Positions 1,462 through 23,869 of a stretch of 64,000 nt of DNA are shown piece by piece; within the stretch, counting starts at the first letter, position 1; every line of letters starts with the position of its first letter. The position numbers and the translations under genes are program-made. The stretch lies in NCBI RefSeq assembly GCF_029937855.1, contig NZ_JAPYPC010000005.1, positions 54,616 to 118,615 of the forward strand, given 5' to 3'. A model generated the notes under the pieces. That model had not been told where the DNA came from and did not search any database. It saw only the letters and a list, made by a program, of their open reading frames with translations. Source of the DNA: Christiangramia sp. Its GTDB lineage: Bacteria; Bacteroidota; Bacteroidia; Flavobacteriales; Flavobacteriaceae.

Positions 1462-2425
1462 AGGACAGATATCTCAATTCATTGAGAAATATTATTTACA
1501 TTTTAATGCCGCAGCTCTCGTAGATGCAGCTAAAGATTACGAAAAGCAACTGGAAGGCGGTTCAAAAATGCTGGTTTCTTTAGCCGGTGCTATGAGTACT
1601 GCTGAAATAGGGAAGATCTTTGCAGAGATGATACGTCAGGATAAGGTTCATATTGTTTCCTGTACCGGTGCAAACCTGGAAGAAGATGTAATGAACCTTG
1701 TAGCACATTCGCATTATAAAAGGGTTCCAAACTATCGTGACCTTACTCCACAGGAGGAATGGGATCTTTTGGAAAAAGGACTCAATCGTGTAACCGACAC
1801 CTGTATTCCCGAAGAAGAAGCTTTCAGAAGGATACAGGAGCATATTTTCAAGATTTGGAAAGATGCTGAAGAAAAAGGAGAACGTTATTTCCCGCATGAA
1901 TTCCTTCATAAACTGCTTTTAAGCGGAGTGATGGAAGAGCATTATGAAATAGATCTTAAAGATTCATGGATGTATGCCGCTGCAGAAAAGAACCTGCCCA
2001 TGGTAGTTCCGGGTTGGGAAGACTCTACGCTTGGAAATATTTTCGCCTCTTACGTTTTAAAAGGTGAATTAAAAGCCAGCACGATGAAATCTGGTATCGA
2101 ATATATGACCTTCCTTGCCGACTGGTATACAGACAATTCTGAAAACGGGATTGGTTTCTTCCAGATTGGCGGCGGTATTGCAGGTGATTTCCCAATTTGC
2201 GTAGTTCCTATGTTATACCAGGATATGGAAAGAACAGACACTCCTTTCTGGAGCTATTTCTGCCAGATCTCAGATTCTACGACTAGTTACGGTTCATATT
2301 CCGGAGCGGTCCCAAATGAAAAGATAACCTGGGGAAAATTAGATATTAACACTCCAAAACATATCATTGAAAGTGATGCAACCATTGTTGCCCCCCTGGT
2401 TTTTGCGTATTTACTGGATATGTAA
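1454..2425 (+). CDS. Deoxyhypusine synthase-like protein (probable homospermidine/aminobutyl-transfer enzyme)
   Basis: Motifs SLAGAMSTAE, TGANLEED, GGGIAGDF and SYSGAVPNEKITWGK (catalytic Lys position kept). Overlaps the speB stop. Confidence 0.9.
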   Translation: MSKGQISQFIEKYYLHFNAAALVDAAKDYEKQLEGGSKMLVSLAGAMSTAEIGKIFAEMIRQDKVHIVSCTGANLEEDVMNLVAHSHYKRVPNYRDLTPQEEWDLLEKGLNRVTDTCIPEEEAFRRIQEHIFKIWKDAEEKGERYFPHEFLHKLLLSGVMEEHYEIDLKDSWMYAAAEKNLPMVVPGWEDSTLGNIFASYVLKGELKASTMKSGIEYMTFLADWYTDNSENGIGFFQIGGGIAGDFPICVVPMLYQDMERTDTPFWSYFCQISDSTTSYGSYSGAVPNEKITWGKLDINTPKHIIESDATIVAPLVFAYLLDM

Positions 2426-2505: not shown

Positions 2506-3153
2506 ATGGAAAACTGGCCAATTTTCGCCATAGGATTTTTAGCTCAATTGTTATTTTCAGCCAGGCTTATTTCGCAATGGTTTCTTTCTGAAAAATCAAA
2601 AAAAGTAGAAACTCCTGTCTTATTTTGGAAACTGAGCCTGCTCGCATCCATTTTACTTTTCACTTATGGATATTTGCGCGAAGACTTCGCCATCATGCTG
2701 GGCCAGTTCCTAATTTATGGGATATACTGGCGCAACCTGCATTTAATGGGAGAATGGCATAAGAGGAATATTTTGTTTAAAGTGCTCGTAATTATTTTTC
2801 CATTTGCCATTACCGCCTACATACTTTTCTTCGGAAGTTTAGAATGGAGCGATCTTTTTACTGCGGAAAATATATCAGGATGGCTCATCGCCCTGGGAAT
2901 AGTAGGTCAGATGGTTTACACTTCACGATTTTTTTACCAGTGGTATCATTCTGAAAAGGAACAGAAATCTTCCCTCCCCATGGGGTTTTGGGAATTAAGT
3001 CTGATGGGTTCCATTCTTCTTTTTACCTACGGAATTTTCAGAGATGACCCGGTTTTGGTAGCGGCCCACTTTTTTGGAGGTATCATTTATATTAGAGACA
3101 TGTATCTTTTAAAGAATTCTGATAAACAGGTTGGCGAGAAGATTCGTCGATAA
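2506..3153 (+). CDS. Lipid-A-disaccharide synthase N-terminal (LAB_N) domain membrane protein, two repeats
   Basis: Two internal repeats, GFLAQLLFSARLISQW..SEK..FWKLSL and GIVGQMVYTSRFFYQW..SEK..FWELSL; hydrophobic throughout. Confidence 0.85.
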   Translation: MENWPIFAIGFLAQLLFSARLISQWFLSEKSKKVETPVLFWKLSLLASILLFTYGYLREDFAIMLGQFLIYGIYWRNLHLMGEWHKRNILFKVLVIIFPFAITAYILFFGSLEWSDLFTAENISGWLIALGIVGQMVYTSRFFYQWYHSEKEQKSSLPMGFWELSLMGSILLFTYGIFRDDPVLVAAHFFGGIIYIRDMYLLKNSDKQVGEKIRR

Positions 3154-3251
3154 AATATTTATTGCAAATTTAATTTTTCGAAAATCAGAGACAGGAGATT
3201 TCAGCAACTAAGAGGTTATGATGAAAAATAATCTTCCTTATAGACATTTAA

Positions 3252-4679
3252 TTATGCGCTGACCGTTTTCTTCCTATCCTCGGTAATTTCATAGAGAAAA
3301 TAACCGATTACCAGTAAATATTCCATAGTGATTAACCAGTAATTTTCCTGATATTCTGTATTAGAATAGGCAAAATAACTAAGCATCACGGTTGCAGACC
3401 AAACTATCATATACTTATAGTGCGTAAAAATGCTTAAAATTAAAGGAATGGCCAGGTACCAGGGATGCACAGTGGTAGATAGCAGAAGATAAATACTCAC
3501 CGCAAAAAGCATATTTTTAATAAGCTGCTGTGTGTTTTGATATTTTCGAAAGAATGTGAAGCCAAAAATGACCAGCACCGTGATCAATGGTAATATTTTG
3601 CCCACAGTTTCAATAATATTATAACCTTTTACCTGAAAGCCAATCCAGCGAATAATATAATATACACTGGCATTGAATTCAAATTTGCCAAACCACAGGC
3701 CTATGCTTGCTAAAAAGTTGGAAACTACTTCAGCAGAATAAAATGGCAGGAATGAGACCAGGACTGTGGCCAGGCATATGAGGTAATAAAGAATCAACTT
3801 CCAAATACCGTCTATTCTTCGACTGCGCTCAGGATGACTGGTATCGGAGTCAAAACCATTTTTTAAGCTTGTCTGGCTGAGCGTAGTCGAAGACTTAAAA
3901 TAATATTTAAAAAGCAAAGGCAGCAACATCAATGGCAGCAATTTGATAGATATTGATAATCCAAGGCTAATTGCACTTACAAACCATTTCGCTTTATGCA
4001 ATAAATAAATGGAAAGTACCAGAAAAAATACCATCACGGCTTCAAAATGCAGGTTTCCGGTCATCTCAATGATAATAAACGGGTTCAGGATATACCAGAA
4101 GATTTGATGTTCGGGAAGTCCGAGAGATTTCAAGAGTTTTCTTCCGAAGAATAGAGTTCCAAAATCGGCAAGAATAATAATTATCCTAAAGATTATTACA
4201 GCGCCCAGTATACTTTTTGCTGAAAGCCAGCCGGCAATGGCAAATATTAACTGATTAAAAGCCGCGTAATTTGAATAATGGCCCGCGCTGAGGCTTCCCA
4301 TGCCATTAAACAATTCCAAAGCCTGAGAAATGTTTAGATTGGGATCTTGGATAAGTTGATCGGGGACAAACTCATAGGGATTTATACCCGAAGTTATAAA
4401 TCTTCCATCCCAAATAAACCTGAAATAATCCTGAGAAAGCATGGGTATAGCCAAAATGAAAACCAATCTGAATGCCAATGCGAGGCCTGCCAGAAACCAA
4501 AAATTATGTTTCTGCATCTGGATGAGTTTAAAACTCAGGTAAAAAACGGCGGCATATATGCCAATAAGTTTAAAGAAATCTGATCTTTCCAGGGCATAGG
4601 CAAAGCTGAAATAAAATGCAATGCAGGAAAGGCTTAAAAGAATAGGAAATTTATAGAGCTTCAGAATTTTAAGACTCAT
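3252..4679 (-). CDS. Polytopic GT-C fold glycosyltransferase (GT87/DUF2029-like, 'mannosyltransferase')
   Basis: Multi-TM protein with LSQDYFRFIWDG in the first loop, plus WYILNPF, GNLHFE and TTVHPWY motifs. Confidence 0.8.
   Translation of the reverse strand: MSLKILKLYKFPILLSLSCIAFYFSFAYALERSDFFKLIGIYAAVFYLSFKLIQMQKHNFWFLAGLALAFRLVFILAIPMLSQDYFRFIWDGRFITSGINPYEFVPDQLIQDPNLNISQALELFNGMGSLSAGHYSNYAAFNQLIFAIAGWLSAKSILGAVIIFRIIIILADFGTLFFGRKLLKSLGLPEHQIFWYILNPFIIIEMTGNLHFEAVMVFFLVLSIYLLHKAKWFVSAISLGLSISIKLLPLMLLPLLFKYYFKSSTTLSQTSLKNGFDSDTSHPERSRRIDGIWKLILYYLICLATVLVSFLPFYSAEVVSNFLASIGLWFGKFEFNASVYYIIRWIGFQVKGYNIIETVGKILPLITVLVIFGFTFFRKYQNTQQLIKNMLFAVSIYLLLSTTVHPWYLAIPLILSIFTHYKYMIVWSATVMLSYFAYSNTEYQENYWLITMEYLLVIGYFLYEITEDRKKTVSA
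3816..3893. repeat. 78-bp REP-like palindromic element inserted in-frame in the GT-C gene
   Basis: Arms TCTTCGACTGCGCTCAG (3816-3832) and CTGAGCGTAGTCGAAGA (3877-3893) form a 17-bp inverted repeat with one mismatch. Length is exactly 26 codons, translating to SSTTLSQTSLKNGFDSDTSHPERSRR. Confidence 0.8.
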
Positions 4680-4707
4680 GGACAGGCTTGGTTTCCTGCT
4701 AAAATAG

Positions 4708-6180
4708 TTAAACTTCTGATCTTATACTTTTGAAGAACACAAAACCAAAACCAGAAAAAAGCATTAAATGGAATATTAAAAGTCCAAAATCGTTCAGCTT
4801 AAATGCACTATAAATCGCAAACCCAAAATAGATAAAGAGAAGACCTTCAATTATCACATTTTTAGAGAAACGGTTTTTTAAATAGCTATTCCCTTTCCAG
4901 GTATCTTTTATGGAGTTAATATTAAATTTGGGAGTCCTGATGAACTCTGAGCGCTTCCCAAAATGACCTTCCAGAACTGCCAGTGTATTATGGACGGAGA
5001 AACCCATCGCAATAGAAAAAAAGGTAATAAACATCCCCACAAACTTAAAAAAGCTCCTTATACTTTTGCCGTGAATCCGGGCATAGGCCGTATAGTAGCA
5101 TGCAAAAAAGATCAGAGTGCTCATGGCAAAACCGGCTATTACATTAAAATACCAGTCAAAAGCTGGGTTGTTATGTTTAATATATAAAACAGGAACGCTA
5201 AGCACAGCAAGTAATAATACTATTAAAAACATACTGGAATTGAGCAGATGAAAAAAACCATGAAATTTGGTACTAAACGAAACCGATCTATCTCTAAGAA
5301 GTTTTCCGTAATTCTTTTTGAAATTCTCTGCCGCTCCTTTATTCCACCTAAACTGCTGACTCCTGGCCGCGCTGATCACCACAGGTAATTCAGCCGGGGT
5401 TTCCACATTTTCTAAATATTTGAACTCCCAGTTTTTCAACTGTGCCCGATAACTAAGGTCCAGGTCTTCTGTCAACGTATCGCCGCTCCAGTTCCCGGCA
5501 TCAAGTATACATTCTTTCCGCCAGATCCCTGCAGTTCCGTTGAAATTAATAAAATTTCGACCGAAATTTCGACCGGTCTGTTCGAGAATAAAGTGAAAAT
5601 CCAGTGCAAAAGCCTGAATCCTGGTAAGCAAAGAATAATCCCTGTTTAAATGTCCCCAACGGGTTTGTACCACCCCAATTTTTTTATTTTTAAAATAGGG
5701 TAGCGTTTCCATCAACCAGTTTCTACCCGGCACAAAATCTGAATCAAAAACTGCGATAAATTCACCTTTTGCAATTTTCAATCCTTCTTTTAAGGCACCG
5801 GCTTTAAATCCGGTTCGCTTTTCCCTTCTTATATGCTGAATATCGAGTCCGGAACCTTGAAGTTCCTTAATAATTTCAGAAGTCTTTTGAATGGAATGAT
5901 CTGTAGAGTCATCCAGTACCTGGATTTCCAATTTATCTTTTGGGTACCTGATCTTTCCTATGTTTTTCAGCAATCTTTCCACTACATAATATTCATTATA
6001 AAGTGGAAGCTGAATAGTCACCGCAGGCAATTCTTCCGTAGAAAAATCAAACTTTTCAGCATCATCTGTGGTTTTGGTAGCTTTTAGGTAATTGATGAGT
6101 AAGTGAAGCTGGGACAGGCTGTAAATAAATATAACAAGTAAGGCAAGGGTGTAAATTATGATTACCGCTAAATCTATCAT
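4708..6180 (-). CDS. Cellulose-synthase-like processive GT2 (CslA/CesA-like)
   Basis: D,D,D,QxxRW signature: VLDDSTD, FKAGAL, VFDSD, TEDLDLS, QQFRWNKG. One N-terminal and several C-terminal TM helices. Confidence 0.9.
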   Translation of the reverse strand: MIDLAVIIIYTLALLVIFIYSLSQLHLLINYLKATKTTDDAEKFDFSTEELPAVTIQLPLYNEYYVVERLLKNIGKIRYPKDKLEIQVLDDSTDHSIQKTSEIIKELQGSGLDIQHIRREKRTGFKAGALKEGLKIAKGEFIAVFDSDFVPGRNWLMETLPYFKNKKIGVVQTRWGHLNRDYSLLTRIQAFALDFHFILEQTGRNFGRNFINFNGTAGIWRKECILDAGNWSGDTLTEDLDLSYRAQLKNWEFKYLENVETPAELPVVISAARSQQFRWNKGAAENFKKNYGKLLRDRSVSFSTKFHGFFHLLNSSMFLIVLLLAVLSVPVLYIKHNNPAFDWYFNVIAGFAMSTLIFFACYYTAYARIHGKSIRSFFKFVGMFITFFSIAMGFSVHNTLAVLEGHFGKRSEFIRTPKFNINSIKDTWKGNSYLKNRFSKNVIIEGLLFIYFGFAIYSAFKLNDFGLLIFHLMLFSGFGFVFFKSIRSEV

Positions 6181-6866
6181 TTAAAACTATATTTAAAAAT
6201 CCAACCAAGAATCTTCACGCCTGCAAAGATAGCACCTTTGATTGTTCCTGAAACTTTTGATACGCCAATCCTGTTTTTATAATGCACAGGAATCTCAACA
6301 TAGCTTAGGTTTTGTCGTAAAGCCTTCAATTGCATTTCAACCGTCCAGCCATAAGTTTTATCTTCCATCTCCAGCTGCAGTAATTTTTTGTATTTAATTG
6401 CTCTAAAAGGGCCGAGATCTGTAAACCTGGAATTAAATAATAACTTCATTAAGCTGGTGGCCAATTTATTCCCGAAGATCTGAGGAAAAGTCATCGAACC
6501 TTTCTCCCTCCATTTTTTTACCCTCGCACCCACTACAAAATCTTTATTTTCTTCTAAAATAGGCTGAATGATTTTATCCAATTCTTCAGGATGATCTGAA
6601 TAATCCCCATCAAGAAATACGATAATATCAGGTTTCTTGTTTTGTTTTGAAATATAGTCCAGACCTTTTAAACAGGCATAACCATAGCCTTTTCGAGATT
6701 CCGAAAGTACCGTGGCACCTGCATTTTCAGCATTGATCTCGGTTTTATCAGTAGAATTATTGCTTACTACGATAACCTCATCCACAAAATCGGGGATTTT
6801 TTTAATTACATGAGTAATTGATTCTGCTTCATTAAAAGCAGGGATAATAACCTTGATAAGAGGCAT
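6177..6866 (-). CDS. GT2 family glycosyltransferase (DPM1/polyprenol-phosphate transferase-like)
   Basis: Motifs VIIPAFNE, GYGYAC, FLDGD and FTDLGPFRAI. Probable start MPLIKV at 6866; the ORF track starts at 6881. Confidence 0.9.
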   Translation of the reverse strand: MPLIKVIIPAFNEAESITHVIKKIPDFVDEVIVVSNNSTDKTEINAENAGATVLSESRKGYGYACLKGLDYISKQNKKPDIIVFLDGDYSDHPEELDKIIQPILEENKDFVVGARVKKWREKGSMTFPQIFGNKLATSLMKLLFNSRFTDLGPFRAIKYKKLLQLEMEDKTYGWTVEMQLKALRQNLSYVEIPVHYKNRIGVSKVSGTIKGAIFAGVKILGWIFKYSFK

Positions 6867-6928
6867 TGGGGAGGTTTGCAAAATTCAGTATTTAATAGGA
6901 AGTGCGAAAATAGGCTATTCCTTCTATC

Positions 6929-8524
6929 TTATTTGGTCTTTTGCTTGATCAAATCCAGCAGGTCCACATTATCACCTAAAACGCCTTCTTCAGAATCTAT
7001 TCTGTTTTTTGGAGATCCATTTTCAAGTTTCAAAACACCTCTTGGACATACCGCAGAACATATTCCACAGCCAACACAACTGGATCTTACGATATTCTGA
7101 CCTTTCTGAGCATATGCCCTCACATCGATTCCCATTTCGCAATATGTAGAACAGTTTCCGCAGGAAATACATTGCCCTCCATTGGTGGTAATTCTAAATT
7201 TTGAAAATAAGCGTTGCTGCATTCCAAGAACGGCAGCCATGGGGCAGCCAAACCTGCACCAAACCCGGTTACCGAAGATTGGATAGAAGCCTGTACCAAT
7301 AACTCCGCTAAATATCGCTCCAATTAAGAAACCATAAGTCGCTCTTAAACTTTCAGCATTAAAAAGGAATAAATTTACTCCGCTAAAATAGTGGAGCCCT
7401 ATTAAGGCAAGGATAATTACCAAATAACCTATGGCTCCATACCTGGCATCTTTTTCTAATTCTTCTCTCTTAAAATACCAAATCCCTGCAAATAAAAGCG
7501 TGAGAAATACACCTACGCCAATTAAAAAACTGTCCCTGGTTAGCCAGTATTTAGAAGGATCGTCTCCCAGGTAAGAATAGACCACAGCCGTGGTCATCAC
7601 CACCACAAATACTAATACACTGTGTACCACCCATCTTTCTACTCTCCATGCAAACTGACTTTTATCTGAAAGATGGCGATAGGGATCTCCAGCCGTTTCC
7701 GCTAATCCACCGCAACCACAAACCCAGCTACAATACCAGCGTTTCCCGTATTTATAAGTTAAAATAGGAGTAATAATAAAAATGGAAGCAATTCCGAAAA
7801 GTAATAAAGCAATACCGATGGTGCCCGCTGAAATAAATTCATCAACGCGATATTGTTCAAAATTATAATAATTAAGCGGCCAAATATTTTTCAGGTCGTA
7901 ATAAGGCAAAGAGAAACCTTCACCGTTGAGCCTGGCCATAAACTCCGGAATTAAGAATGCGAAAGAGGTTTGAAAGAACATTACCGAATATGTCCTTATT
8001 TTCTCATAGCGGTTATGCCGGTATTTCCACAAAAATTTCACACCAAAGGCTGTAATAGCAATAGTATAAAGCGTTCCATACACAAACCACTGGCTTGCCG
8101 GTTCGCCGCTCAAAAGTTTACTTAAAGGATCAAACAAAGCGATTAAGCCTACATTATCCCCCTCTTCCCTTAAACCTAAATATTCAGGAAAAAAATAAAG
8201 GATCACATAAAAGCCGGTAAGGGAAATTCCTGCAAGCCAGGCGAGATAACCTCTATTGCTCATAGACTTAAACCATACCCCGTCATTCTTGATCCCCGGG
8301 TGTGTTCCCGAATAAGCAGCCTGTGCGAACCACACAATTCCCCCTATTATGGAAAGTAAAGCAATACTTAGCCAGAGTGTTTTATTGGGAAAGCTAACAT
8401 TCAAAGAAGCAAGTAAAAGGATAATAAGTCCCGACACTCCTAAGAGGCTTGCAATTTTTTGTTGGGTATTAATAGATTTTGGGGCGTCACCGGTTAGCGA
8501 CATATTATGTTCTATTCTGCTCAT
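6929..8524 (-). CDS. Polytopic membrane protein with 4Fe-4S clusters (NapH/YccM-like ferredoxin-type)
   Basis: Many TM helices; CSWVCGCG and CRFGCP membrane Cys motifs; C-terminal 2x[4Fe-4S] domain CISCGNCSTYCE / CVGCGICSAVCP. Confidence 0.85.
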   Translation of the reverse strand: MSRIEHNMSLTGDAPKSINTQQKIASLLGVSGLIILLLASLNVSFPNKTLWLSIALLSIIGGIVWFAQAAYSGTHPGIKNDGVWFKSMSNRGYLAWLAGISLTGFYVILYFFPEYLGLREEGDNVGLIALFDPLSKLLSGEPASQWFVYGTLYTIAITAFGVKFLWKYRHNRYEKIRTYSVMFFQTSFAFLIPEFMARLNGEGFSLPYYDLKNIWPLNYYNFEQYRVDEFISAGTIGIALLLFGIASIFIITPILTYKYGKRWYCSWVCGCGGLAETAGDPYRHLSDKSQFAWRVERWVVHSVLVFVVVMTTAVVYSYLGDDPSKYWLTRDSFLIGVGVFLTLLFAGIWYFKREELEKDARYGAIGYLVIILALIGLHYFSGVNLFLFNAESLRATYGFLIGAIFSGVIGTGFYPIFGNRVWCRFGCPMAAVLGMQQRLFSKFRITTNGGQCISCGNCSTYCEMGIDVRAYAQKGQNIVRSSCVGCGICSAVCPRGVLKLENGSPKNRIDSEEGVLGDNVDLLDLIKQKTK

Positions 8525-8526
8525 TT

Positions 8527-9813
8527 TTAGGCTTCCTGTAGGTTATTTTTAAAACTTTTGAAGATTTCCTTTTCATGTGTATCATAAAATTCAGGGTCGA
8601 AATTAGCAAGTTTCAGATTAGCAAGCACATGATCTATCTTTCGATTTTCATTCAGCCACAGATCAAAAATTTCCTGCCGCATCCTTATTCCGAAGGTGTT
8701 GATCCCTAAGAATTCATTCGTTTCAGAATTGTAAGAAATCGTAATCGCTTTTAGTCCACTTTCATGTTCCCAGTGAAAATGCTGTTCATTCTCTTTTGGC
8801 TCAGGCCAAACCCAGCCATAGGTTTGGTATTCAATATCAAAAAATTTAGCGGAATTAAACCAGTTCCCGGGTTGATAGGCTGTACGCGCTCCGGTTAATG
8901 TTCCGGCAAGGGTTTCCCCCATTATTCTACCAGTGTACCATACTGCTTCTACCGATTTTCTCTGGCCGATAACATTTCTCTGCTGGGCACAATCCCCTAT
9001 AGCATACACATCTTCAATGCTCGTTTCCAAATATTCATTTACCAGAATCCCTTTATCGGTTTCAAGCTCTGAATCTTTTAGAAAGTCTATGTTTGGTCGT
9101 ACTCCGGCGCAAAGACCTACAAGCTGACACTCAATTTCTTCGCCCTCTTGGGTTAAAACGGCTCTTGCTCTTCCATTATCATCGGCCAGAATTTTATCTA
9201 ACTCTGTATTATGCCTTAGGTCTACGCCATGGGATTTAATATGATTTGAGATCATTTCAGCATCAGGAAGAGGCAATACATTGCTCCAAAATGCTTTTTC
9301 TCGAACCAGGAAAGTAACCTCTATATTTCGTGTTTTAAGCATTTCAGCAAGCTCCACGCCAATTAGTCCGCCACCTATGATCACCGCTTTCCTGGTATAG
9401 GCTGTATTTTCTTCCAGCTCTATAAGGTCCTGTTTGGTCACCAGTCCCTGAACTCCTTTTAGGTCTTCTCCTTCCCAGCCAAACTTATTGTAGATTGAAC
9501 CCGTTGCAATAATAAGTTTATCATACTCGAGTGGCTCTCCCGAGGAAAAAAGAAGTTTCTTTTTCTCAAAATCTATTTGTTCTACCCAGGCTTTTTTTAA
9601 TTCTATCCTGTTCTTTTCCCAAAACCAATCTTCGTAGGGTTTCAAATGGTCCCACTTCATATGCCCCATATAAACATACATAAGGGCAGTACGGGAAAAA
9701 AAATAATCTGATTCACCTGAAATGACAGTAATTTTGTGATCGGAGCGTTTTCGAATATGCCTTGCAGCGGTTATTCCTGAAATTCCGTTCCCAATAATTA
9801 CAATATGCTCCAT
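8527..9813 (-). CDS. NAD(P)/FAD-dependent oxidoreductase (rubredoxin/NirB-reductase-like)
   Basis: IIGNGISG (FAD), IIGGGLIG (NAD) and YAIGDC motifs. Start reassigned to MEHIVIIG at 9813. Confidence 0.85.
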   Translation of the reverse strand: MEHIVIIGNGISGITAARHIRKRSDHKITVISGESDYFFSRTALMYVYMGHMKWDHLKPYEDWFWEKNRIELKKAWVEQIDFEKKKLLFSSGEPLEYDKLIIATGSIYNKFGWEGEDLKGVQGLVTKQDLIELEENTAYTRKAVIIGGGLIGVELAEMLKTRNIEVTFLVREKAFWSNVLPLPDAEMISNHIKSHGVDLRHNTELDKILADDNGRARAVLTQEGEEIECQLVGLCAGVRPNIDFLKDSELETDKGILVNEYLETSIEDVYAIGDCAQQRNVIGQRKSVEAVWYTGRIMGETLAGTLTGARTAYQPGNWFNSAKFFDIEYQTYGWVWPEPKENEQHFHWEHESGLKAITISYNSETNEFLGINTFGIRMRQEIFDLWLNENRKIDHVLANLKLANFDPEFYDTHEKEIFKSFKNNLQEA

Positions 9814-9913
9814 TAATTTTTTATAATTTGCCTGAAGGCCAGATATCACCCAAGTAAAGTACGCTGAAAATAGGGAGAATCCCAAGTACCCAGAGATTTT
9901 TATAAAATTAACA

Positions 9914-10945
9914 ATGTTTTACAAAGCTGAATTTATCTCATTAAAAATTGTAGCCCTTTTAGCTCTCACCCTAATTTGGTCATGTCAGGCTGAAATTCCT
10001 TTCAAAAAAATTAATGGTATAAGCCTGGTTGCTGCCAGAGATAGTCTTTCAGAAAAACAGGCAGAAAGGATCCTGGAAATAAATGCTAACGCTGTCGCTT
10101 TAATGCCCTATGCTTTTATGAGGGATAAAGAAAATCCTGAATTGATCTTCAATATCGAAAGACAGTGGTTTGGAGAACGAGCTGAAGGCATAGAGCAGTC
10201 CATTCTAATGCTAAAGAAAAAAGATTTAAAAATTATGATCAAGCCCCATATCTGGTTAAGAAATGGAGACTTTACGGGAGATTTAAAATTTCCTTCGGAA
10301 GCTGATTGGCAAAAATTTGAAAGATCTTATCGAAATTATATAATGCTCTATGCAAAAATAGCAGAGAAACATCATATTGAGATCTTTTGTATTGGAACCG
10401 AACTTTTCAATTTTGTAAAGGAAAGACCTGAATTTTGGAAGGAGTTAATACGCGATCTTAGAAAGGTTTACGAAGGCAAACTTGTCTATGCTGAAAACTG
10501 GGACAAAGCAGATCAGGTTGATTTATGGCAAGAACTGGATTTTATAGGAATAGACGCATATTTTCCGTTGAGCGAAAAGTTATCTCCAAGCGAGGAGGAG
10601 ATTATTAGCGGATGGAGAAAACATACTGAAATGCTTAAAAATTTGTCTTCAGAATATAAAAAACAGGTGCTTTTTACTGAATATGGTTACAGAAGTATAG
10701 ATTATGCGCTTAAAGAACCCTGGAATTCAGGAAAAAATATTGCTAATATCAATCACAATCTGCAGGCCAGGGCACTAAAGGTTTTATATGAAGAATTCTG
10801 GACAGAAAATTGGTTTTCCGGTGGATATTTATGGAAGTGGCACCAACATGAAGATTCCGGAGGTATAGAAAATGACCGGTTCACTCCGCAAAACAAACCC
10901 GCAGAAAATATCATTAAAGAGTACTATAAGAAATTTAGGAACTAA
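9914..10945 (+). CDS. Glycoside hydrolase family 113-like lipoprotein (TIM barrel)
   Basis: Lipobox IWSC; KPHIW, IGTEL (acid/base Glu), YAENWD, IGIDAYFPL and FTEYG (nucleophile Glu) motifs. Confidence 0.8.
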   Translation: MFYKAEFISLKIVALLALTLIWSCQAEIPFKKINGISLVAARDSLSEKQAERILEINANAVALMPYAFMRDKENPELIFNIERQWFGERAEGIEQSILMLKKKDLKIMIKPHIWLRNGDFTGDLKFPSEADWQKFERSYRNYIMLYAKIAEKHHIEIFCIGTELFNFVKERPEFWKELIRDLRKVYEGKLVYAENWDKADQVDLWQELDFIGIDAYFPLSEKLSPSEEEIISGWRKHTEMLKNLSSEYKKQVLFTEYGYRSIDYALKEPWNSGKNIANINHNLQARALKVLYEEFWTENWFSGGYLWKWHQHEDSGGIENDRFTPQNKPAENIIKEYYKKFRN

Positions 10946-11621
10946 CCCTCTTGTAGTAGTGGCTGTAGAGTTCTTCCGGTGACGCGCCAGTACGTCTTTT
11001 CCAGTATATCTGGATAAACAACCATTGCGTATTCCAAACTCCCAATTTGTCGTAGAGCCTGGCCGAGGTGGTAATCCACTTTTTTATAATAGTAAATTGC
11101 TTTTTCTTGTAGAGCCTTCTTATAATTTCATTGTCTTCATACACCTTATAAGACTCATCAAAACCTCCAATTTCATCGAAAAGTGCCATTTCTACGTAAA
11201 GGGACTGGTCCCCACCTCTACAGGTAATATGGTTCACTTTTGTAAAATGCCCCATCAAATTGAGCCACCAGTGATCCTTATCAAATTTCATTTTAAAGCA
11301 GCCAGCCTTATTTCCCTTCTCCACCTCTGCGATTATCAAGGAATCAAAATTTGAAGGAGGTAAACTATCCACGTGCAGAAAATAAAGAATTTCACCTTTG
11401 GCCAGCCTGGCACCGGTATTCATTTGTACCGCACGGCCTTTCTCCGAAGGAACATAAAATACCATAGGATGATTTTTGGCAATAGTAGCCGTAGCATCGG
11501 TACTACCACCATCCACAACGATTATTTCAGAAATATTACCTGACGATGAAGCTTCCAGGTGCCGCAAAAGCATAGGAAGCTGCTCTTCTTCATTAAAAGC
11601 CGGAACAATAATACTAATCAT
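10935..11621 (-). CDS. TIGR04283-type GT2 glycosyltransferase (rSAM/seleno-domain or arsenosugar-associated)
   Basis: SIIVPAFNEE, VDGGSTD, GRAVQMNTGA, FLHVDS, GGDQSL, YED and TSAR motifs match this family pattern. Confidence 0.8.
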   Translation of the reverse strand: MISIIVPAFNEEEQLPMLLRHLEASSSGNISEIIVVDGGSTDATATIAKNHPMVFYVPSEKGRAVQMNTGARLAKGEILYFLHVDSLPPSNFDSLIIAEVEKGNKAGCFKMKFDKDHWWLNLMGHFTKVNHITCRGGDQSLYVEMALFDEIGGFDESYKVYEDNEIIRRLYKKKQFTIIKKWITTSARLYDKLGVWNTQWLFIQIYWKRRTGASPEELYSHYYKRVSS

Positions 11622-11629
11622 TCCCCAGT

Positions 11630-12433
11630 TTATTTAGCTTCATTTAGATCCCAGTTGTAGTTCTTATACGAAATAGAAGCCCCGGAATTTATTTTGGTAT
11701 TAGAATACTGATTTACATACTCTATCACCGTCCCATTTTCTTTAAAATCTTTTGCATACCAATCGAATACTGAAGATAGTTTCGCTGAATTTTTAGATAT
11801 CTCGTTTTTATCTGAATTAATGAATTCTTTGGTTACTCGTTCTAGTTGTTGGTCAATCTTATTCGCTGTATATGCCTCGGTTATTAATTTTGGACAGGAA
11901 ATCGAAGCACAATTAATAGCAAAATGGATTCGAGGTTCATTCATTTTTCTTAGTATACTGTTTTCTATCCCGCCAAGAGAGATTTCAGTATCCCCAACTT
12001 TCACGAATTCTTTTGTCCACGCACCATTTATATCTTTGATGCTTTTCACCGGATAATTCCTTAAAATAAGGTCTACCGTATATGCATTGTAAAGGTTTAT
12101 ATAATAGGCCAATAATTCATCACGGCCCCACTCCTCTTTTGGCTCCTGGGAAGATAGCATTTTCAGATATTTGTCCAGTTCAGCACGATCTTTTTGAAAT
12201 CCTTTATAATCTACCATTCCATTTTCATTCACATGCTTCTTTAGTAAAGAATTCCAGGTACCATGATCCAGCTTTTGTCCGGAATTTTCTGAAGAATCCT
12301 CAGAAGTTTCAGGGGTAGGCAAACCTTTACTATTTAGGCCGGCACTGGAAATTAAATTACAGGAGGCAAACATACAGGCTCCCGATATTATAATGACAAA
12401 ACTTAAAATTATCTTTTTCATATCTTTTTTCAT
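11630..12433 (-). CDS. DUF547 domain lipoprotein
   Basis: Lipobox FASC; GMVDYKGF, LAYYINLYNAYTV and EPRIHFAINCASISCP motifs. Confidence 0.9.
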   Translation of the reverse strand: MKKDMKKIILSFVIIISGACMFASCNLISSAGLNSKGLPTPETSEDSSENSGQKLDHGTWNSLLKKHVNENGMVDYKGFQKDRAELDKYLKMLSSQEPKEEWGRDELLAYYINLYNAYTVDLILRNYPVKSIKDINGAWTKEFVKVGDTEISLGGIENSILRKMNEPRIHFAINCASISCPKLITEAYTANKIDQQLERVTKEFINSDKNEISKNSAKLSSVFDWYAKDFKENGTVIEYVNQYSNTKINSGASISYKNYNWDLNEAK

Positions 12434-12503
12434 TTTACTTATTATTGCAAATACACTTCAAAGTTTCACGTGTAAAAGTCGCTCTTAATTTCATTTATCT
12501 ACT

Positions 12504-13316
12504 TTATATATTCTGAAGTATTTCTTTAAATAATTTGATCATATTAGGTTCAGCTTTTTCCGCATTGTCCAGAATTTTCTGAATATCTACTTTTTCGAGG
12601 TTTTCCGGATCTCCCTGATCTGTAATTACGGAAATTGCCGAAACTGGGATTCCCAAATGGTTCGCTACTATCACTTCAGGAACTGTACTCATTCCCACAG
12701 CATCTGCACCTATCAGTTTTAAATATTTGTATTCTGCCCTGGTTTCTAATTGAGGGCCAAGTACTGAAGCATACACTCCTTTATGTAACCTGATATTCAG
12801 TTTTTTTGCGGCCTCTTCAAAAAGTTGATTCATAGCGCTATCATAAGGCTCACTCATATCTACAAAACGCTCTCCAAGTTTTTCAACACCGTGAAAGGCC
12901 AACGGAGATCCTCCCTGCAAATTGATATGATCATCTATCAGCATCAGCTCACTTTCTTTAAAGTCAAGGTTTATTGCGCCAGATGCATTGGAAACTAAAA
13001 GTTTATTTATTCCAAGACGTTTCATTACCCTAACTGGAAAAGTAACATCAAATAAGCTGTAGCCTTCATAAAGATGGAACCTTCCCTGCATCACTACTAC
13101 TTTCTTGCCCTGCAAAGTTCCAAAAATGAGTTTCCCTCTATGAAATTCTACGGTAGCTGTTGGAAAGTAAGGGATATGGTTGTAACTGGCTTCCTGCTCT
13201 ACTTCCACATCATCAATGAGCTTTCCCAGGCCCGTTCCCAGAATGATCCCGACCTCAGGTTCTCCAAAACCTTTTGATTTTAAATAGTCTACAGATTCAT
13301 TTATTCTATCAATCAT
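12504..13316 (-). CDS. Purine nucleoside phosphorylase (trimeric NP-I type)
   Basis: IILGTGLG, QGRFHLYEG, GPQLETRAE, GMSTVPE and ITD motifs. Confidence 0.92.
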   Translation of the reverse strand: MIDRINESVDYLKSKGFGEPEVGIILGTGLGKLIDDVEVEQEASYNHIPYFPTATVEFHRGKLIFGTLQGKKVVVMQGRFHLYEGYSLFDVTFPVRVMKRLGINKLLVSNASGAINLDFKESELMLIDDHINLQGGSPLAFHGVEKLGERFVDMSEPYDSAMNQLFEEAAKKLNIRLHKGVYASVLGPQLETRAEYKYLKLIGADAVGMSTVPEVIVANHLGIPVSAISVITDQGDPENLEKVDIQKILDNAEKAEPNMIKLFKEILQNI

Positions 13317-13921
13317 ACACTTATGAATTTTTGGAAAGCGGGATGATCTTTTATATCCTCTAACAGGTCTACATCGTTACGTGTTTCCAGTAATTTTACA
13401 TCTTTATCATCAAGATCCTTTAAAGTATCTTCCAACACACTGGAAGTTCCCCACTCTTTATTTTTAAACACTTCTGAATTTAAGGTTTTCATTCCCAATA
13501 GATAGTATCCGCCGTCAGCAGCAGGACCAATCACAAAATCATGTTGCCCTAATTCCTGAAAAGCATTATCAATATCTTCAGAATTGATATCATACATATC
13601 ACTTCCAACAATAATTATCTTTTCATAATTTTCAGCAAAACCCTCGCTAAAAGCATTGAACATACGCTCGCCGAGGTCTTCCCCAAATTGCTGCTTTTTT
13701 TCATAGACGGTATTATCCCAAATATCATCTCTATTTATATAATCTGAATAATACACCTGCTTTTTTGCCTTTACGGAAGCCGTAAATTTTGCGGAATGAT
13801 CAAGTAAGAATTTATAAATTTTAAGTGCTTTATCATCTCCAAGATCTTTTGCCAATCTGGTTTTTACTTTTCCCGCAACAGGATTTTTTGTAAAAATGAT
13901 GAGTAGGTTTTTATTTATCAC
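13313..13921 (-). CDS. TIGR04282/DUF2064-type CofC-like transferase (arsenosugar-associated)
   Basis: IFTKNPVAGKVKTRLA, GEDLGERM, IVGSD, IGPAADGGYYLLG and NDVD motifs. Confidence 0.85.
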   Translation of the reverse strand: MINKNLLIIFTKNPVAGKVKTRLAKDLGDDKALKIYKFLLDHSAKFTASVKAKKQVYYSDYINRDDIWDNTVYEKKQQFGEDLGERMFNAFSEGFAENYEKIIIVGSDMYDINSEDIDNAFQELGQHDFVIGPAADGGYYLLGMKTLNSEVFKNKEWGTSSVLEDTLKDLDDKDVKLLETRNDVDLLEDIKDHPAFQKFISV

Positions 13922-14434
13922 TTAGTAAATTTTTTTTCCATTTTCGAGCCATTTGCCCCAGCGTTTTGAATACACATGTACCTTTTCCGTTTCTTTGCCG
14001 GTGCTATCAACTACAGGAAAATCTTCATTCTTCCATTCAAAAATACCACCATATAAATTGTGAACATCCTTAAATCCGGCGTTCATTATTCTTTTCGCAA
14101 TATTTTCAGAACGAATACCTATGGAACAATACACTACAATTCTTTTATCCTTCGGAATATTCTGAATTTTGGATTCGTCAAAGTAATTATATCCTACAAA
14201 AATTGCATCCTGAAGATGACTGACTTCAAACTCATCAAGTTCACGGGCATCCAGAATAACTACCTCATCATTTAACTGATGCATTCTCAATTCTTCCACA
14301 GAAATATAGGGGGAATTACCGGTATTATATTTATTTAATAAGGTACTTAACGAATTCTGGGAATTCATTTTATTAAAGCTTATCATCAATACAAATATAA
14401 TCAGGTAGTTTTTCAATTTTGTTTTTTCAGTCAT
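13922..14434 (-). CDS. Exported rhodanese-like domain protein
   Basis: LDARELDEFEVSHL, YCSIGIRS (active-loop Cys) and LYGGIFEW motifs; N-terminal hydrophobic signal. Start uncertain (ATG 14434 or TTG 14470). Confidence 0.85.
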   Translation of the reverse strand: MTEKTKLKNYLIIFVLMISFNKMNSQNSLSTLLNKYNTGNSPYISVEELRMHQLNDEVVILDARELDEFEVSHLQDAIFVGYNYFDESKIQNIPKDKRIVVYCSIGIRSENIAKRIMNAGFKDVHNLYGGIFEWKNEDFPVVDSTGKETEKVHVYSKRWGKWLENGKKIY

Positions 14435-14501
14435 TTCAATAAAGTCCAGGGAAAGAAATCTCTCCAACACTATTATTTACGAGGTTTTTTGGATTATAGT
14501 T

Positions 14502-14684
14502 TTAAAAATTCACTACTCCGGTAATAGAAAGAAGGATAAATAAAAAGACAATTACAATTAATATCACAACCCACAAATTGGACCTGGAGTTTCCTGTACG
14601 GGTTTCGGTAGATTGATTCCTGCTTTGTTCTGATTTTTTATGATCGGTAGGAACCGGGGAAGATCTATCTTTATCTGAATTCAT
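14502..14684 (-). CDS. Small hypothetical single-pass membrane protein (60 aa)
   Basis: ATG at 14684; polar N-terminus followed by a C-terminal hydrophobic helix; co-directional with the operon below it. Confidence 0.5.
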   Translation of the reverse strand: MNSDKDRSSPVPTDHKKSEQSRNQSTETRTGNSRSNLWVVILIVIVFLFILLSITGVVNF

Positions 14685-14960: not shown

Positions 14961-16010
14961 ATGAGAATTGATGTAAATACATTGCCGGTTAATGAGATTC
15001 TGGAAGACATTGCCAATTCCCTAAATGCCGAGCTAAAAAATAACAGCGGTGAATTATCTATTCAAATACCTTCTGAATTTGGAGAAGGCTATATAAGGGG
15101 GGTGAGTTTTGATTCGGGGATGGGCTTTGTTACGTATAATTGTAAATTCTCTGAAGATGTAGAAATCCATTTTTCGCTCAATACAGTTCACCCACTTAAA
15201 TTTATATTTTGCTCAGAAGGTAAGGTTGGCCATTGTTTTCAGAAGAAAGATAATATCCATATTATTGATACTTACCAGAATATTGTAGTAAGCAGCAATG
15301 GTTATGACGGGCATATACTACATTTTAAAAAAGATGTATCTACCCATGTTTCAAGCCTGGAGATCATACGATCTATTTTTACCCACAGATCCAACTACGA
15401 TTTTAAAGATCTTGATCCTACCTTAAAAGATTTATTTAAGGATGCGGTTTCTGAAAAACAATTCTTTTATCAGGGAAATTATAGTATTAAAGCGGCAGAT
15501 GTCATGGAAGACATTAATACTAAAGATTATACCGGTTTTTTAAGAAATCTCTTCCTGGAGAGTAAGGTATTTGAAATGCTGGTGATACAGATAGCGCAAT
15601 ATGAAGATGATGAGAATGGAGATAATCTTCCGCAGATATTAAGAAAATCTGATATTGAAAAGGTAAATTATGTAGCTAAAAGAATACAGGGAGATCTCAG
15701 CACAAACCTAACCGTTGAAACTCTTGCCAAGGAGGCTGGAACGAATGTTAACAAGCTCCAGGAAGGGTTTAAATATGTTTATAACCTTACGGTAAATAAA
15801 TATATGCAGCATGTAAAATTAGAGGCTGCCAAAGAAATGCTTAGACTTTCTGAGAAAAATATTTCTGAAATAGTAACCTCCATTGGTTTAAATAACCGAA
15901 GCTACTTCTCTAAGATCTTTAAAGAGAAATACGGAGTAAGCCCAAAATACTTTTTGAAAAATGGAAAGAACCTGAAAGACGCAGATGCCGAGGTTCACGA
16001 ATGGGATTAA
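14961..16010 (+). CDS. AraC family transcriptional regulator
   Basis: C-terminal double HTH (LTVETLAKEAGTNVNKLQEGFK...ISEIVTSIGLNNRSYFSKIFKEKYGVSP). Confidence 0.9.
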   Translation: MRIDVNTLPVNEILEDIANSLNAELKNNSGELSIQIPSEFGEGYIRGVSFDSGMGFVTYNCKFSEDVEIHFSLNTVHPLKFIFCSEGKVGHCFQKKDNIHIIDTYQNIVVSSNGYDGHILHFKKDVSTHVSSLEIIRSIFTHRSNYDFKDLDPTLKDLFKDAVSEKQFFYQGNYSIKAADVMEDINTKDYTGFLRNLFLESKVFEMLVIQIAQYEDDENGDNLPQILRKSDIEKVNYVAKRIQGDLSTNLTVETLAKEAGTNVNKLQEGFKYVYNLTVNKYMQHVKLEAAKEMLRLSEKNISEIVTSIGLNNRSYFSKIFKEKYGVSPKYFLKNGKNLKDADAEVHEWD

Positions 16011-20313: not shown

Positions 20314-20330
20314 AATTTTCTTTCCTCAAA

Positions 20331-20960: not shown

Positions 20961-21242
20961 TTATTTAAATTTACTCATGTCCGGTTAAAGAAACTAGACC
21001 GCTTCGCTTTTAGATATAAGAAAATTAGACCTGGACTTAACTAACTGATAAACAAAGTAAATTTAATATTGTGTTTTTCAAAGAATGCCCCAATTCAAAA
21101 ATTTTTAAAAGGAGGGTATAGATAGTAGTAAAAATGCTTTGAACTATTAAAAATACTGGGTTCAGGTTCGTTCTTTAAAATCTTTATCGGACACCACTGA
21201 TTTAAATTTATTTAGGATTTTTCCATTTTAAAAATCAGCCAT

Positions 21243-21279
21243 AAAAAAACCTCACAGGTTTTTAATACCTGTGAGGTTT
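21243..21279 (-). terminator. Intrinsic terminator after groL
   Basis: 13-bp inverted repeat AAACCTCACAGGT / ACCTGTGAGGTTT; the A tract at 21243-21249 is the U tract on the minus strand. Confidence 0.85.
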
Positions 21280-21334
21280 AAATTTCATAACAGCTTTTAA
21301 AAAAAACTGTTTTATTTTCGTTGTGGCCGTGCCA

Positions 21335-22990
<1,656 letters not shown>

Positions 22991-23094
22991 TCAGATCTTT
23001 TCAATAATCTGAAAATTATGGTTAATTAATTTTTTGTTGTTGAAATGATTACCTCTCTCACAAATAAAGTGAGGCAAGCCTATTGAAATAAAAC

Positions 23095-23867: not shown

Positions 23868-23869
23868 TC

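Follow-up and report, generated by a model that had tools for sequence, protein, structure and literature searches.

What do transferases of the kind named after arsenosugars have to do with the membrane redox pair and the glycan-assembly enzymes beside which they stand in a flavobacterial genome? The question is raised by positions 2506-14684 of a 64,000-nucleotide stretch of a Christiangramia contig (the window, by which we mean that whole stretch), where an earlier reading of the bare DNA (below, the sequence-only reading) had described 12 contiguous genes, tightly spaced or overlapping, and had supposed that their products activate an unusual sugar, pass it through a lipid carrier and display or trim it at the cell envelope. 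All 12 open reading frames (ORFs) were recovered as listed there and each domain call was reproduced by Pfam and NCBIfam scans, which bears out that description of the genes. The adjacency of 12 genes in itself says little; what lies beyond chance is their conserved linkage, among the Flavobacteriaceae and, in co-directional operons, far outside that family. We propose, with a probability of roughly 0.55, one polyprenyl-phosphate-dependent system, encoded in several transcription units, that would attach to an envelope glycoconjugate an unusual pentose from a 5'-modified adenosine, itself a by-product or derivative of S-adenosylmethionine (SAM). The broader claim, that these genes form one envelope-glycoconjugate system, we consider likely.

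Layout of the locus

The genes lie on both strands and hence cannot form one 12-gene operon; they fall into at least four transcription units, given here from the head of the cluster.

Unit 1 (14434->10935, minus strand), the first block: rhodanese, TIGR04282, phosphorylase, DUF547 and TIGR04283 genes
13922..14434 (ORF 13922-14470), minus strand: rhodanese, NF045521 'rhoda_near_glyco', 209 bits against a cut-off of 145
13313..13921, minus strand: TIGR04282/DUF2064 protein, CofC/MobA-like nucleotidyltransferase fold, 212.1 bits against a cut-off of 134
12504..13316, minus strand: purine nucleoside phosphorylase (PNP) of the trimeric family, PRK08202, 335.6 bits
11630..12433, minus strand: DUF547 lipoprotein, PF04784, E 1.3e-27, lipoprotein-type N-terminus by eye
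10935..11621, minus strand: TIGR04283 protein, a soluble family 2 glycosyltransferase (GT2), 234.6 bits against a cut-off of 182
Unit 2 (9914->10945, plus strand): GH113 gene alone
9914..10945, plus strand: GH113 lipoprotein of a beta-mannanase-type hydrolase family, PF22612, E 3.7e-44, lipoprotein signal by eye
Unit 3 (9813->3252, minus strand): five genes with gaps of -4 to 47 bp
8527..9813 (longest ORF 8527-9885, from TTG), minus strand: Pyr_redox_2 flavoprotein, an FAD/NAD(P)H oxidoreductase of the ferredoxin/rubredoxin-reductase type
6929..8524, minus strand: membrane 2x[4Fe-4S] protein of the NapH/CcoG type, NapH/MauN family E 3.5e-15, CxxxCP motifs, about 8 hydrophobic segments
6177..6881, minus strand: GT2 of the dolichyl-phosphate (Dol-P)/polyprenyl-phosphate-sugar-synthase type, 234 aa; AglJ 119 bits, Dol-P-hexose transferase 58 bits, PpgS 55 bits
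4708..6180, minus strand: CesA/PgaC-like membrane GT2, 490 aa; DxD, TED and QQFRW (Q-x-x-R-W) motifs, about 6 transmembrane segments, BcsA E 6e-20
3252..4679, minus strand: GT-C glycosyltransferase, GT87/MptA-B-like, 475 aa; MptA E 5.6e-12, MptB E 3.4e-9
Unit 4 (plus strand): LAB_N, behind an agmatinase and a deoxyhypusine-synthase-like gene
2506-3153, plus strand: LAB_N (twice), with weak SemiSWEET-like similarity, by family matches; co-directional with the agmatinase and deoxyhypusine-synthase-like genes

The GH113 gene converges on the TIGR04283 gene with an 11-bp overlap and diverges from the flavoprotein unit across about 100 bp when the latter starts at the ATG at 9813 (MEHIVIIGNG), the start used by relatives and probably the true one. 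The export signals claimed earlier for the rhodanese, DUF547 and GH113 proteins agree with the signal- or lipoprotein-type N-termini seen by eye, which in the rhodanese take the form of a hydrophobic signal. Scans for sigma-70 promoters and terminators gave no more sites than shuffled sequence, Bacteroidota promoters lying outside the models, and a scan of the window for the TAnnTTTG promoter motif gave nothing usable.

Linkage in distant phyla

Part of the evidence comes from outside the Bacteroidota. A tblastn search with the Fe-S protein against annotated plasmids and chromids led to a Pseudoalteromonas chromid, where a co-directional operon encodes, in order, a hypothetical protein, a CesA-like protein, a GT87 protein, a 784-aa 'NAD(P)-binding' protein, a GT2, a DUF2064 protein and a TIGR04283-like protein. 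By BLASTP these match the window for the CesA-like GT2 (37% over 449 aa, E 1e-100), the GT-C (E 4e-12), the Dol-P-type GT2 (40%, E 2e-54), TIGR04282 (E 2e-10) and TIGR04283 (E 2e-12), and the 784-aa protein is a fusion whose N-terminal part resembles the window flavoprotein (E 5e-10) and whose C-terminal part is the NapH-like Fe-S protein (41%, E 1e-26). At E <= 1e-10 there are 4,634 relatives of this fusion, most of them from marine Gammaproteobacteria, and six further contexts were picked solely by similarity to it. Alteromonas and a BD1-7 clade bacterium have the order hypothetical protein, CesA-like, GT87, fusion, GT2, DUF2064; Aliikangiella has this order too, extended by co-directional genes for an ArsM-like methyltransferase, a radical-SAM protein, an ArsC of the thioredoxin type and a methylthioadenosine phosphorylase (MTAP); and Thalassotalea has hypothetical protein, CesA-like, GT87, fusion, GT2, DUF547, DUF2064, methyltransferase, radical SAM and a PNP-family gene. 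An Eisenbacteria-labelled metagenome-assembled genome (MAG) carries fusion, GT2, GT87, DUF2064, the TIGR04169 'arsenosugar-associated peroxidase-like' protein and DUF547, with TIGR04283 nearby and no CesA-like gene, while a Lentisphaeria-labelled contig breaks off behind the fusion. In all six, GT87, the fusion and the Dol-P-type GT2 are neighbours, and DUF2064 is found in every context that continues past the GT2 (six of six, Pseudoalteromonas counted). Across these operons the CesA-like GT2 of the window is 36-41% identical to its gammaproteobacterial partner and the Dol-P-type GT2 38-43% identical to the proteobacterial ones. No rhodanese was seen in the proteobacterial versions examined. 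The first gene of these operons encodes a protein of about 286 aa with a signal peptide and a weak beta-barrel match.

The first block has its own existence elsewhere. An Acinetobacter plasmid combines ArsS, a VTT/FAD-oxidoreductase, DUF547, TIGR04283, TIGR04282, an ArsM-like protein, Pit, MTAP and a desaturase, and a Thiodictyon plasmid combines a GT2, a desaturase, ArsS and TIGR04282, both without a glycan module. There are thus two modules, and the Flavobacteriaceae locus is both of them side by side, sharing a single DUF2064 gene. In the window the only DUF2064 lies in the 'arsenosugar' block, whereas in Proteobacteria DUF2064 is the neighbour of the Dol-P-type GT2; it is thus a component common to the two halves, and the strongest argument that they depend on each other. 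A match to the CesA-like GT2 on a Caballeronia plasmid proved to belong to an unrelated exopolysaccharide locus; hits in Chondrinema and Nonomuraea were uninformative.

Linkage within the Flavobacteriaceae

With one genome scanned per species, 80 loci came up, none outside the Flavobacteriaceae; the nearest are in Christiangramia (formerly Gramella), where the TIGR04283 protein is 66-83% identical. Synteny was counted by tblastn, within 10-kb flanks, in 50 species-loci of the family that extend 9 kb or more to each side. The five first-block genes occur in 48-50 of the 50; the counts are 42 for the flavoprotein, 38 for the Fe-S protein, 36 for the Dol-P-type GT2 and 31 for the CesA-like GT2, and these are lower bounds because insertions push genes past the 10-kb limit. 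The outer flanks are conserved in no more than 5-15 loci. Linkage thus persists across at least 15 genera while the flanks change; the sequence-only reading had proposed gene neighbourhoods across Bacteroidota as a check. In Formosa-type loci the GT2, CesA-like and GT-C genes directly abut the first block, without redox genes or GH113.

The part of the earlier inference that coupled TIGR04282 and TIGR04283 to redox and glycan-assembly genes is accordingly upheld by conservation, but a single operon is not, nor is the inclusion of LAB_N, which is linked only within the genus: it lies behind the GT-C gene in some Christiangramia and is missing in three loci (L009-L011) and in other genera. A LAB_N protein could act as a flippase or transporter; its membership of the cluster is doubtful, and as a conserved flippase it is ruled out by that restricted linkage. 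GH113, likewise counted in earlier, is specific to Flavobacteriaceae: it is present in at least 44 of the 50 loci and absent from the proteobacterial versions.

Several additions were noted in individual loci. An LpxR-family gene for an outer-membrane protein closes the cluster in some Flavobacteriaceae: it follows the CesA-like GT2 gene in one locus (L027:19572-20510; PF09982, E 5e-39), and an 80%-identical gene has the matching position in L064. Together with the weak beta-barrel match of the protein that opens the proteobacterial operons, it hints at lipid A or lipopolysaccharide (LPS) as a possible acceptor. Genes for phosphate or arsenate uptake (a Pst-like ATP-binding cassette transporter, Pit, a Phn ATP-binding cassette transporter) and for a thioredoxin-type ArsC lie inside other versions (L067:3711-7048, L083:9750-10862, L085:12845-15083, L091:14876-15298), which fits an arsenate-fed pathway in those organisms. 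A gene of the fatty-acid-hydroxylase/sterol-desaturase family, OlsE-like (L027:6919-7806, L083:11827-12486, L084:7022-7927), occurs in 26 of the 50 loci and in the Acinetobacter and Thiodictyon clusters, while the window lacks it; where present, it suggests that the product is lipid-linked.

Loss of ArsS and ArsM

If the first block belongs to arsenosugar synthesis, where are the two enzymes that handle arsenic? Two junctions answer for the window.

14435..14501, no strand: ArsS-less junction; the gene for the radical-SAM protein ArsS found here in relatives takes up about 1.06 kb, with spacers in addition
12434..12503, no strand: ArsM-less junction of 70 bp, where relatives carry a 969-bp arsenosugar-type ArsM gene between PNP and DUF547

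Nearly all relatives have both: the 351-aa protein encoded upstream of the rhodanese is ArsS (TIGR04167, 442 bits against a cut-off of 300) and the 322-aa protein between PNP and DUF547 is ArsM (NF038099, 574.6 bits against a cut-off of 400). Every Christiangramia locus that covers both positions has both genes, and tblastn for them across the 64-kb window (E <= 1e-3) gave no match. Collinearity breaks at about 14495 and 14335 of the window against positions 4592 and 6177 of locus L018, and again at the ArsM junction; both absences are clean and gene-sized. Contigs of three independent metagenome runs align collinearly with the window and have its ArsM-less junction too, skipping 983 bases, so misassembly is ruled out for ArsM; across the ArsS site, likewise, contigs of these runs follow the order of the window. 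One of the runs, X3, holds a 99%-identical strain on a 19-kb contig that shares the ArsM-less junction. There the contigs of the organism have a word depth of 16.8, depth over ArsM is zero, no contig matches ArsM at 80% or more, and the sole ArsS-like contig has a different depth, 7.66, all of which suggests that arsS and arsM are absent from the whole genome. The 'arsenosugar' label hence does not fit this copy, since the two arsenic enzymes are missing.

It is unlikely, for these reasons, that the cluster still makes arsenosugar conjugates here, from ArsS and ArsM encoded elsewhere or from imported dimethylarsenic or arsenical nucleosides, as detoxification or as a phosphate-sparing envelope chemistry. 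Such a role would suit the related loci, where ArsM is present in 42 and ArsS in 28 of 50, as well as the phosphate/arsenate transporters and ArsC embedded in several versions and the NCBI family names ('arsenosugar biosynthesis'); ArsS chemistry is established (PMC13598754), and the window is 64 kb of a 155-kb contig in a genome of several Mb, which leaves room for genes elsewhere. The metagenomic depths speak against it, as do the lineages that have likewise kept the cluster without both genes nearby (7 of the 50 loci, in other genera, within 10 kb) and the existence of proteobacterial operons without any arsenic gene.

Next in order, and also improbable, is that the halves are unrelated neighbours, a decaying relic of an arsenosugar operon beside an independent exopolysaccharide or glycolipid operon, adjacent through shared family ancestry. 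The separate units on alternating strands, the Algibacter-type loci that have the first block alone, and the ArsS clusters of Acinetobacter and Thiodictyon, which lack GT87, CesA-like and Dol-P-type GT2 genes, all agree with this, and the loss of ArsS and ArsM could be recent, the 99%-identical strain sharing the ArsM-less junction. Relic status is, however, not what the remaining genes look like: they have no frameshifts or stop codons, their catalytic and invariant residues are intact, and their divergence from ArsS-positive relatives is no greater than that among the relatives (ratios 0.85-1.08), so decay of the first block is rejected, by a test that is weak if the loss is recent, and the genes look functional. 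Linkage that outlasts the flanks across genera is a second difficulty for independent neighbours. A third is the company that DUF2064 keeps in distant phyla, where it shares one operon with GT87, the fusion, GT2 and CesA-like genes, sometimes with TIGR04283, DUF547, PNP or MTAP, ArsM-like and radical-SAM genes as well.

Proposed pathway

Homology and gene context are the basis of every step of the polyprenyl-phosphate-dependent system that we favour. The phosphorylase would split a 5'-substituted 5'-deoxyadenosine into adenine and a pentose-1-phosphate; DUF2064/TIGR04282 would convert the latter to a nucleoside-diphosphate (NDP) sugar; the Dol-P-Man-synthase-like GT2 would pass the sugar to polyprenyl phosphate; and, after flipping, the GT87-like GT-C would transfer it in the periplasm onto a glycan or glycolipid made by the CesA-like GT2, a polymer that the GH113 lipoprotein would trim in Flavobacteriaceae. 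TIGR04283 might be a second outlet for the NDP-sugar, towards another acceptor. In most relatives, ArsM and ArsS would supply 5'-deoxy-5'-dimethylarsinoyl-adenosine, and for that reason the sugar there would be an arsenosugar; this organism, having lost both, would use methylthioadenosine or 5'-deoxyadenosine, or its cluster would be idle. That the sugar derives from a 5'-modified adenosine stands at about even odds, and any statement of its identity in this organism is tentative at best.

The clue to the nucleoside lies in the phosphorylase. In human PNP, replacement of Asn243 by Asp moves specificity towards adenosine, and His257 touches the 5'-hydroxyl. In an alignment with the human sequence, whose coordinates agree with those of the PDB matches, the window PNP retains the phosphate- and ribose-binding residues, with Asp233 in place of Asn243 and Ile245 in place of His257. 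Cluster-embedded PNPs have Asp at the first position in 69 of 69 cases and Ile or Val at the second in 69 of 69. On the strength of these replacements and of the human mutagenesis, the sequences suggest an adenine nucleoside with a non-hydroxyl 5' group as substrate. The window protein scores 104 bits against the MTAP model, whose cut-off is 275; MTAP itself holds the equivalent place in the Acinetobacter, Rhodococcus and Aliikangiella clusters, a PNP-family gene in Thalassotalea.

The TIGR04282 protein, the candidate activating enzyme, matches PDB 3cgx, a 'putative nucleotide-diphospho-sugar transferase' (E 1e-26), and is homologous to the DUF2064 protein of actinobacterial clusters of MTAP, epimerase, GT2 and DUF2064. 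The DUF2064 family comprises about 15,000 representative clusters; the best 150 matches in the representative library are all close to the query and bear, as cluster names, only MAG or Pontibacter labels. TIGR04283 is the usual partner of DUF2064 in ArsS-type clusters. Proteins in which TIGR04282 and TIGR04283 are fused also occur, and TIGR04283 homologues adjoin DUF2064 or ArsS in Acinetobacter, Thiodictyon, Pseudoalteromonas and Alteromonas. Rhodanese and TIGR04282 are distinct genes in nearly all loci, separated by a TAA stop followed by an in-frame GTG, and this recurrent stop rules out a broken fusion or pseudogene. In Christiangramia sediminicola the two form one ORF (L001:6422-7399), with CAA where the other loci have the stop, which is either a true fusion of an exported and a cytoplasmic domain or a sequencing error.

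The earlier idea of a lipid carrier leading to the envelope accords with the homology of the two enzymes concerned, the GT2 resembling Dol-P-Man synthase and the GT-C model resembling enzymes that use Dol-P-Man or polyprenyl-phosphate-mannose. The GT2, which we propose makes the lipid-linked sugar donor, matches the Pyrococcus furiosus Dol-P-Man synthase 5mlz over its full length. Pfam found no match in the GT-C protein itself; its homologues carry PF26314 and PF09594 (GT87, MptA_B) and are named mannosyltransferase. An AlphaFold (AF2) model of the GT-C from 38 sequences (predicted local distance difference test score, pLDDT, 82.6; predicted template-modelling score, pTM, 0.86) matches only GT-Cs that use dolichyl- or polyprenyl-phosphate sugars, namely GPI-mannosyltransferase I with Dol-P-Man (TM, the template-modelling score, 0.56-0.63), PimE, ALG6, ALG3 and ArnT. 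The fold is thereby confirmed. We propose that the protein works on the periplasmic side, where it would take the sugar from polyprenyl phosphate and place it on an envelope acceptor, a glycan or glycolipid that the CesA-like GT2 is proposed to make; GH113 possibly trims that glycan. The GT-C protein is, with the rhodanese and GH113, among the fastest-evolving of the cluster: it is only 97% identical between the window and the run X3 strain (P0121), and the 40 best-supported of the 144 differences from that 99%-identical strain, those listed among the 144, lie at 2993-4485, in or near the GT-C gene and the LAB_N end.

The flavoprotein, which by sequence and by family and structure matches lacks the cysteine of CoA-disulfide reductases, is proposed to donate electrons to the adjacent Fe-S protein. 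The two would form one NAD(P)H-driven electron-transfer unit for a membrane redox step on a lipid-linked intermediate or on the heteroatom, which might modify the lipid-linked sugar, reduce an oxide of arsenic or sulfur, or reduce the carrier lipid. Outside the cytoplasm, the rhodanese and DUF547 proteins would take part in sulfur or arsenic chemistry. NF045521 is an NCBI rhodanese subfamily built for this neighbourhood ('rhodanese near glycosyltransferases'), and Cys115 is invariant among 67 sequences. DUF547, found also in the clusters of Acinetobacter, Roseomonas, the Eisenbacteria-labelled MAG and Thalassotalea, has an invariant PRIHFAINCAS-SCP motif with Cys175 and Cys180 (CxxxxC-P) and is possibly a periplasmic thiol- or metalloid-handling protein; no PDB relatives were found by sequence, and a single-sequence AlphaFold model (pLDDT 41.7) was unusable.

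A sulfur or selenium system, in which the rhodanese, DUF547 (CxxxxC) and the flavoprotein/Fe-S pair would relay persulfide or selenide into a thio- or seleno-sugar conjugate, is very unlikely: the invariant catalytic Cys of the rhodanese, the weak likeness of this protein to selenoprotein-type rhodaneses and of the flavoprotein to a SelD-linked family, the first definition of TIGR04282 and TIGR04283 through a linked radical-SAM protein often containing selenocysteine, and the JGI name of one member ('rSAM/selenodomain-associated transferase 1') are set against the absence of the rhodanese from all proteobacterial versions examined, the lack of SelD or any other selenium-utilisation gene in the first 35 kb of the window (the annotated part), and a phosphorylase with a changed 5' pocket, replaced elsewhere by MTAP, that points to a nucleoside-derived sugar.

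Comparison with described systems

To return to the system proposed here, its closest counterpart is the methylthioxylose (MTX) capping of mycobacterial lipoarabinomannan, a pathway reportedly described by Angala et al. in 2017. According to three papers, the cap in M. tuberculosis starts from 5'-methylthioadenosine, its donor is a decaprenyl-phosphate-linked sugar made by the GT2 MtxS (Rv0539), and a GT-C enzyme, MtxT (Rv0541c), transfers it (PMC11127046, PMC12088412, PMC8780516). The occurrence of MTX-type modification outside lipoarabinomannan is called unclear in a 2024 paper (PMC11127046). The likeness is partial. The series of phosphorylase, DUF2064, Dol-P-type GT2 and GT-C would run in parallel, from a 5'-modified adenosine through a 5-substituted pentofuranose linked to polyprenyl phosphate by a small GT2 to transfer by a GT-C outside the cytoplasm. 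MTX-type plasmid clusters, such as MTAP, epimerase, GT2, DUF2064 and GtrA in Rhodococcus and GT2 with TIGR04282 in M. abscessus, share with the window DUF2064 (E about 1e-14), a GT2 and phosphorylase-superfamily proteins; the GT2 of the two plasmids aligns with the Dol-P-type GT2 of the window over its full length (31% over 214 aa, E 1e-28) and has the same pattern of NCBIfam matches, whereas TIGR04283 aligns over the first 100 residues only. The differences are as clear: the window GT-C is GT87-like and its phosphorylase of the PNP type rather than MTAP; the acceptor cannot be lipoarabinomannan; the flavoprotein/Fe-S unit, CesA-like synthase, TIGR04283, rhodanese, DUF547 and GH113 are additional; and family scans found no GtrA among the cluster genes or their neighbours. 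The membrane proteins encoded in the actinobacterial clusters are ruled out as orthologues of the GT-C for want of any similarity; the M. abscessus protein has only a weak PMT_2 match.

For arsenosugars, the known first steps are those of ArsM and the radical-SAM enzyme ArsS of Synechocystis, and orthologous clusters of sister species hold bona fide versions of both. NCBIfam defines an arsenosugar neighbourhood (TIGR04167, NF038099, TIGR04282, TIGR04283, TIGR04169, NF045521), of which TIGR04282, TIGR04283 and NF045521 are above their curated cut-offs in the window. This copy differs in having neither ArsS nor ArsM, and the curated names carry no link to GT87, the Dol-P-type GT2, the CesA-like protein or the flavoprotein/Fe-S pair. 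For the steps after ArsS no describing paper was found in the literature searched, nor any that links DUF2064 or TIGR04282/TIGR04283 to those four. What is already known comprises the NCBI names of three proteins and the published ArsS, ArsM and MTX pathways. The statement that no described pathway contains all these parts thus needs qualifying, because MTX capping matches some of them; for the full set no describing paper was found.

The GtrA/GtrB/Gtr*, ArnC/ArnT and GT136 pentofuranose systems (PMC11127046) resemble the locus in encoding a GT2 donor synthase together with a GT-C and in modifying the product after polymerisation, outside the cytoplasm, as we suppose for the window. They differ in that the window donor would not derive from phosphoribosyl pyrophosphate or a common UDP-sugar and seems to need activation by DUF2064, in the absence of a conserved flippase gene from the locus, and in the flavoprotein/Fe-S membrane protein encoded between the GT-C and GT2 genes, a pair that stays together, separated by the fusion gene, in seven proteobacterial or MAG contexts. 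With BcsA/BcsZ and PgaC operons the locus shares a processive membrane GT2 with QxxRW and an adjacent secreted glycoside hydrolase, GH113 taking the place of BcsZ (GH8). A Pfam scan of the window found no PilZ/c-di-GMP module, BcsB/PgaB-like partner or outer-membrane porin, although relatives of the locus do have an LpxR-family or other beta-barrel protein.

Strength of the proposal

A number of points weigh against one system fed by a modified nucleoside. By NCBIfam the phosphorylase falls into the inosine/guanosine PNP family and not into MTAP, and there are proteobacterial operons without any phosphorylase, so that a dedicated nucleoside is not a necessary source of the sugar. No assay of any DUF2064 protein is described in the literature searched. 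The parallel with MTX capping is weakened by the lack of an epimerase of the short-chain dehydrogenase/reductase type in or next to the cluster (family scans) and by the result of hhalign, which found no similarity between the window GT-C and the membrane proteins of about 450 aa in the actinobacterial clusters. M. tuberculosis Rv0540 is putatively a DUF2064 protein, and Rv0539 presumably a close relative of the plasmid GT2. No flippase is conserved, the sole candidate in the window being the LAB_N/SemiSWEET-like protein, and the model assigns no definite step to the flavoprotein/Fe-S unit. The two halves are separate transcription units in the window, RNA runs that might have given evidence of co-transcription were looked for and none was found, and in Algibacter-type loci nothing but the first block lies within 10 kb.

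Significance

These genes are candidates for the steps of arsenosugar synthesis that follow ArsS (phosphorylase, DUF2064, GT2 and GT-C), and the proposal predicts that the arsenosugar product would be an envelope conjugate delivered by a lipid carrier and not a free metabolite. A wider reading, which is doubtful at present, is that marine heterotrophic bacteria (Flavobacteriaceae, Alteromonadales and others) share a pathway that generalises MTX capping, in which SAM-derived 5-deoxy-5-X-pentofuranoses (X being dimethylarsinoyl, methylthio or H) would be activated by DUF2064, carried on polyprenyl phosphate and attached by GT87 to a surface glycan or to lipid A/LPS, with a dedicated NAD(P)H-flavin-FeS membrane reductase. 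If true, it would supply the missing arsenosugar steps after ArsS, make bacterial cell surfaces a source of marine arsenosugars, and mean that variants without arsenic genes, such as that of the window, display a sulfur or deoxy analogue. The clusters suggest that MTX-related chemistry is widespread in Gram-negative marine bacteria, and they give a functional context to DUF2064, DUF547, the flavoprotein/NapH-like fusion and the GT87 branch outside Actinobacteria. With all genes intact except the two specific to arsenic, the window amounts to a natural experiment that can help to separate arsenic-dependent from arsenic-independent functions, and 'arsenosugar biosynthesis glycosyltransferase' probably says too much as a product name in many genomes.

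Neighbouring genes

One further ORF stands at the head of the cluster.

14502..14684, minus strand: 60-aa ORF, transmembrane helix at the C-terminal end, no family assignment

The end coordinate given earlier, 14684, is the ATG of this separate membrane ORF. In 10 Christiangramia loci it is found upstream of ArsS with 62-86% conservation, and no homologues were found outside Christiangramia among the loci compared; it is a tentative member of the cluster. Beyond it, at 14961-17485, an AraC-family regulator that is conserved in the genus diverges from the cluster head and might control it, and is followed by a Na+/sulfate symporter of the DASS (divalent anion:sodium symporter) family.

At the opposite end, the agmatinase and deoxyhypusine/homospermidine-synthase-like genes of polyamine metabolism (586-2425, plus strand) flank the cluster. 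The pair adjoins it in Christiangramia and in one other genus (locus L043), and 'fused MFS/spermidine synthase' genes (MFS, major facilitator superfamily) lie near the Pseudoalteromonas locus; a tie between polyamine genes and methylthioadenosine supply is speculative. The stretch 18157-35000 is housekeeping-like, with a molybdenum-cofactor (MoCo)-binding oxidoreductase, CutC, GroEL, a sigma-54 activator, a MiaB-like radical-SAM protein, an LVIVD-repeat protein and two M16 peptidases, and its genes appear unrelated to the cluster.

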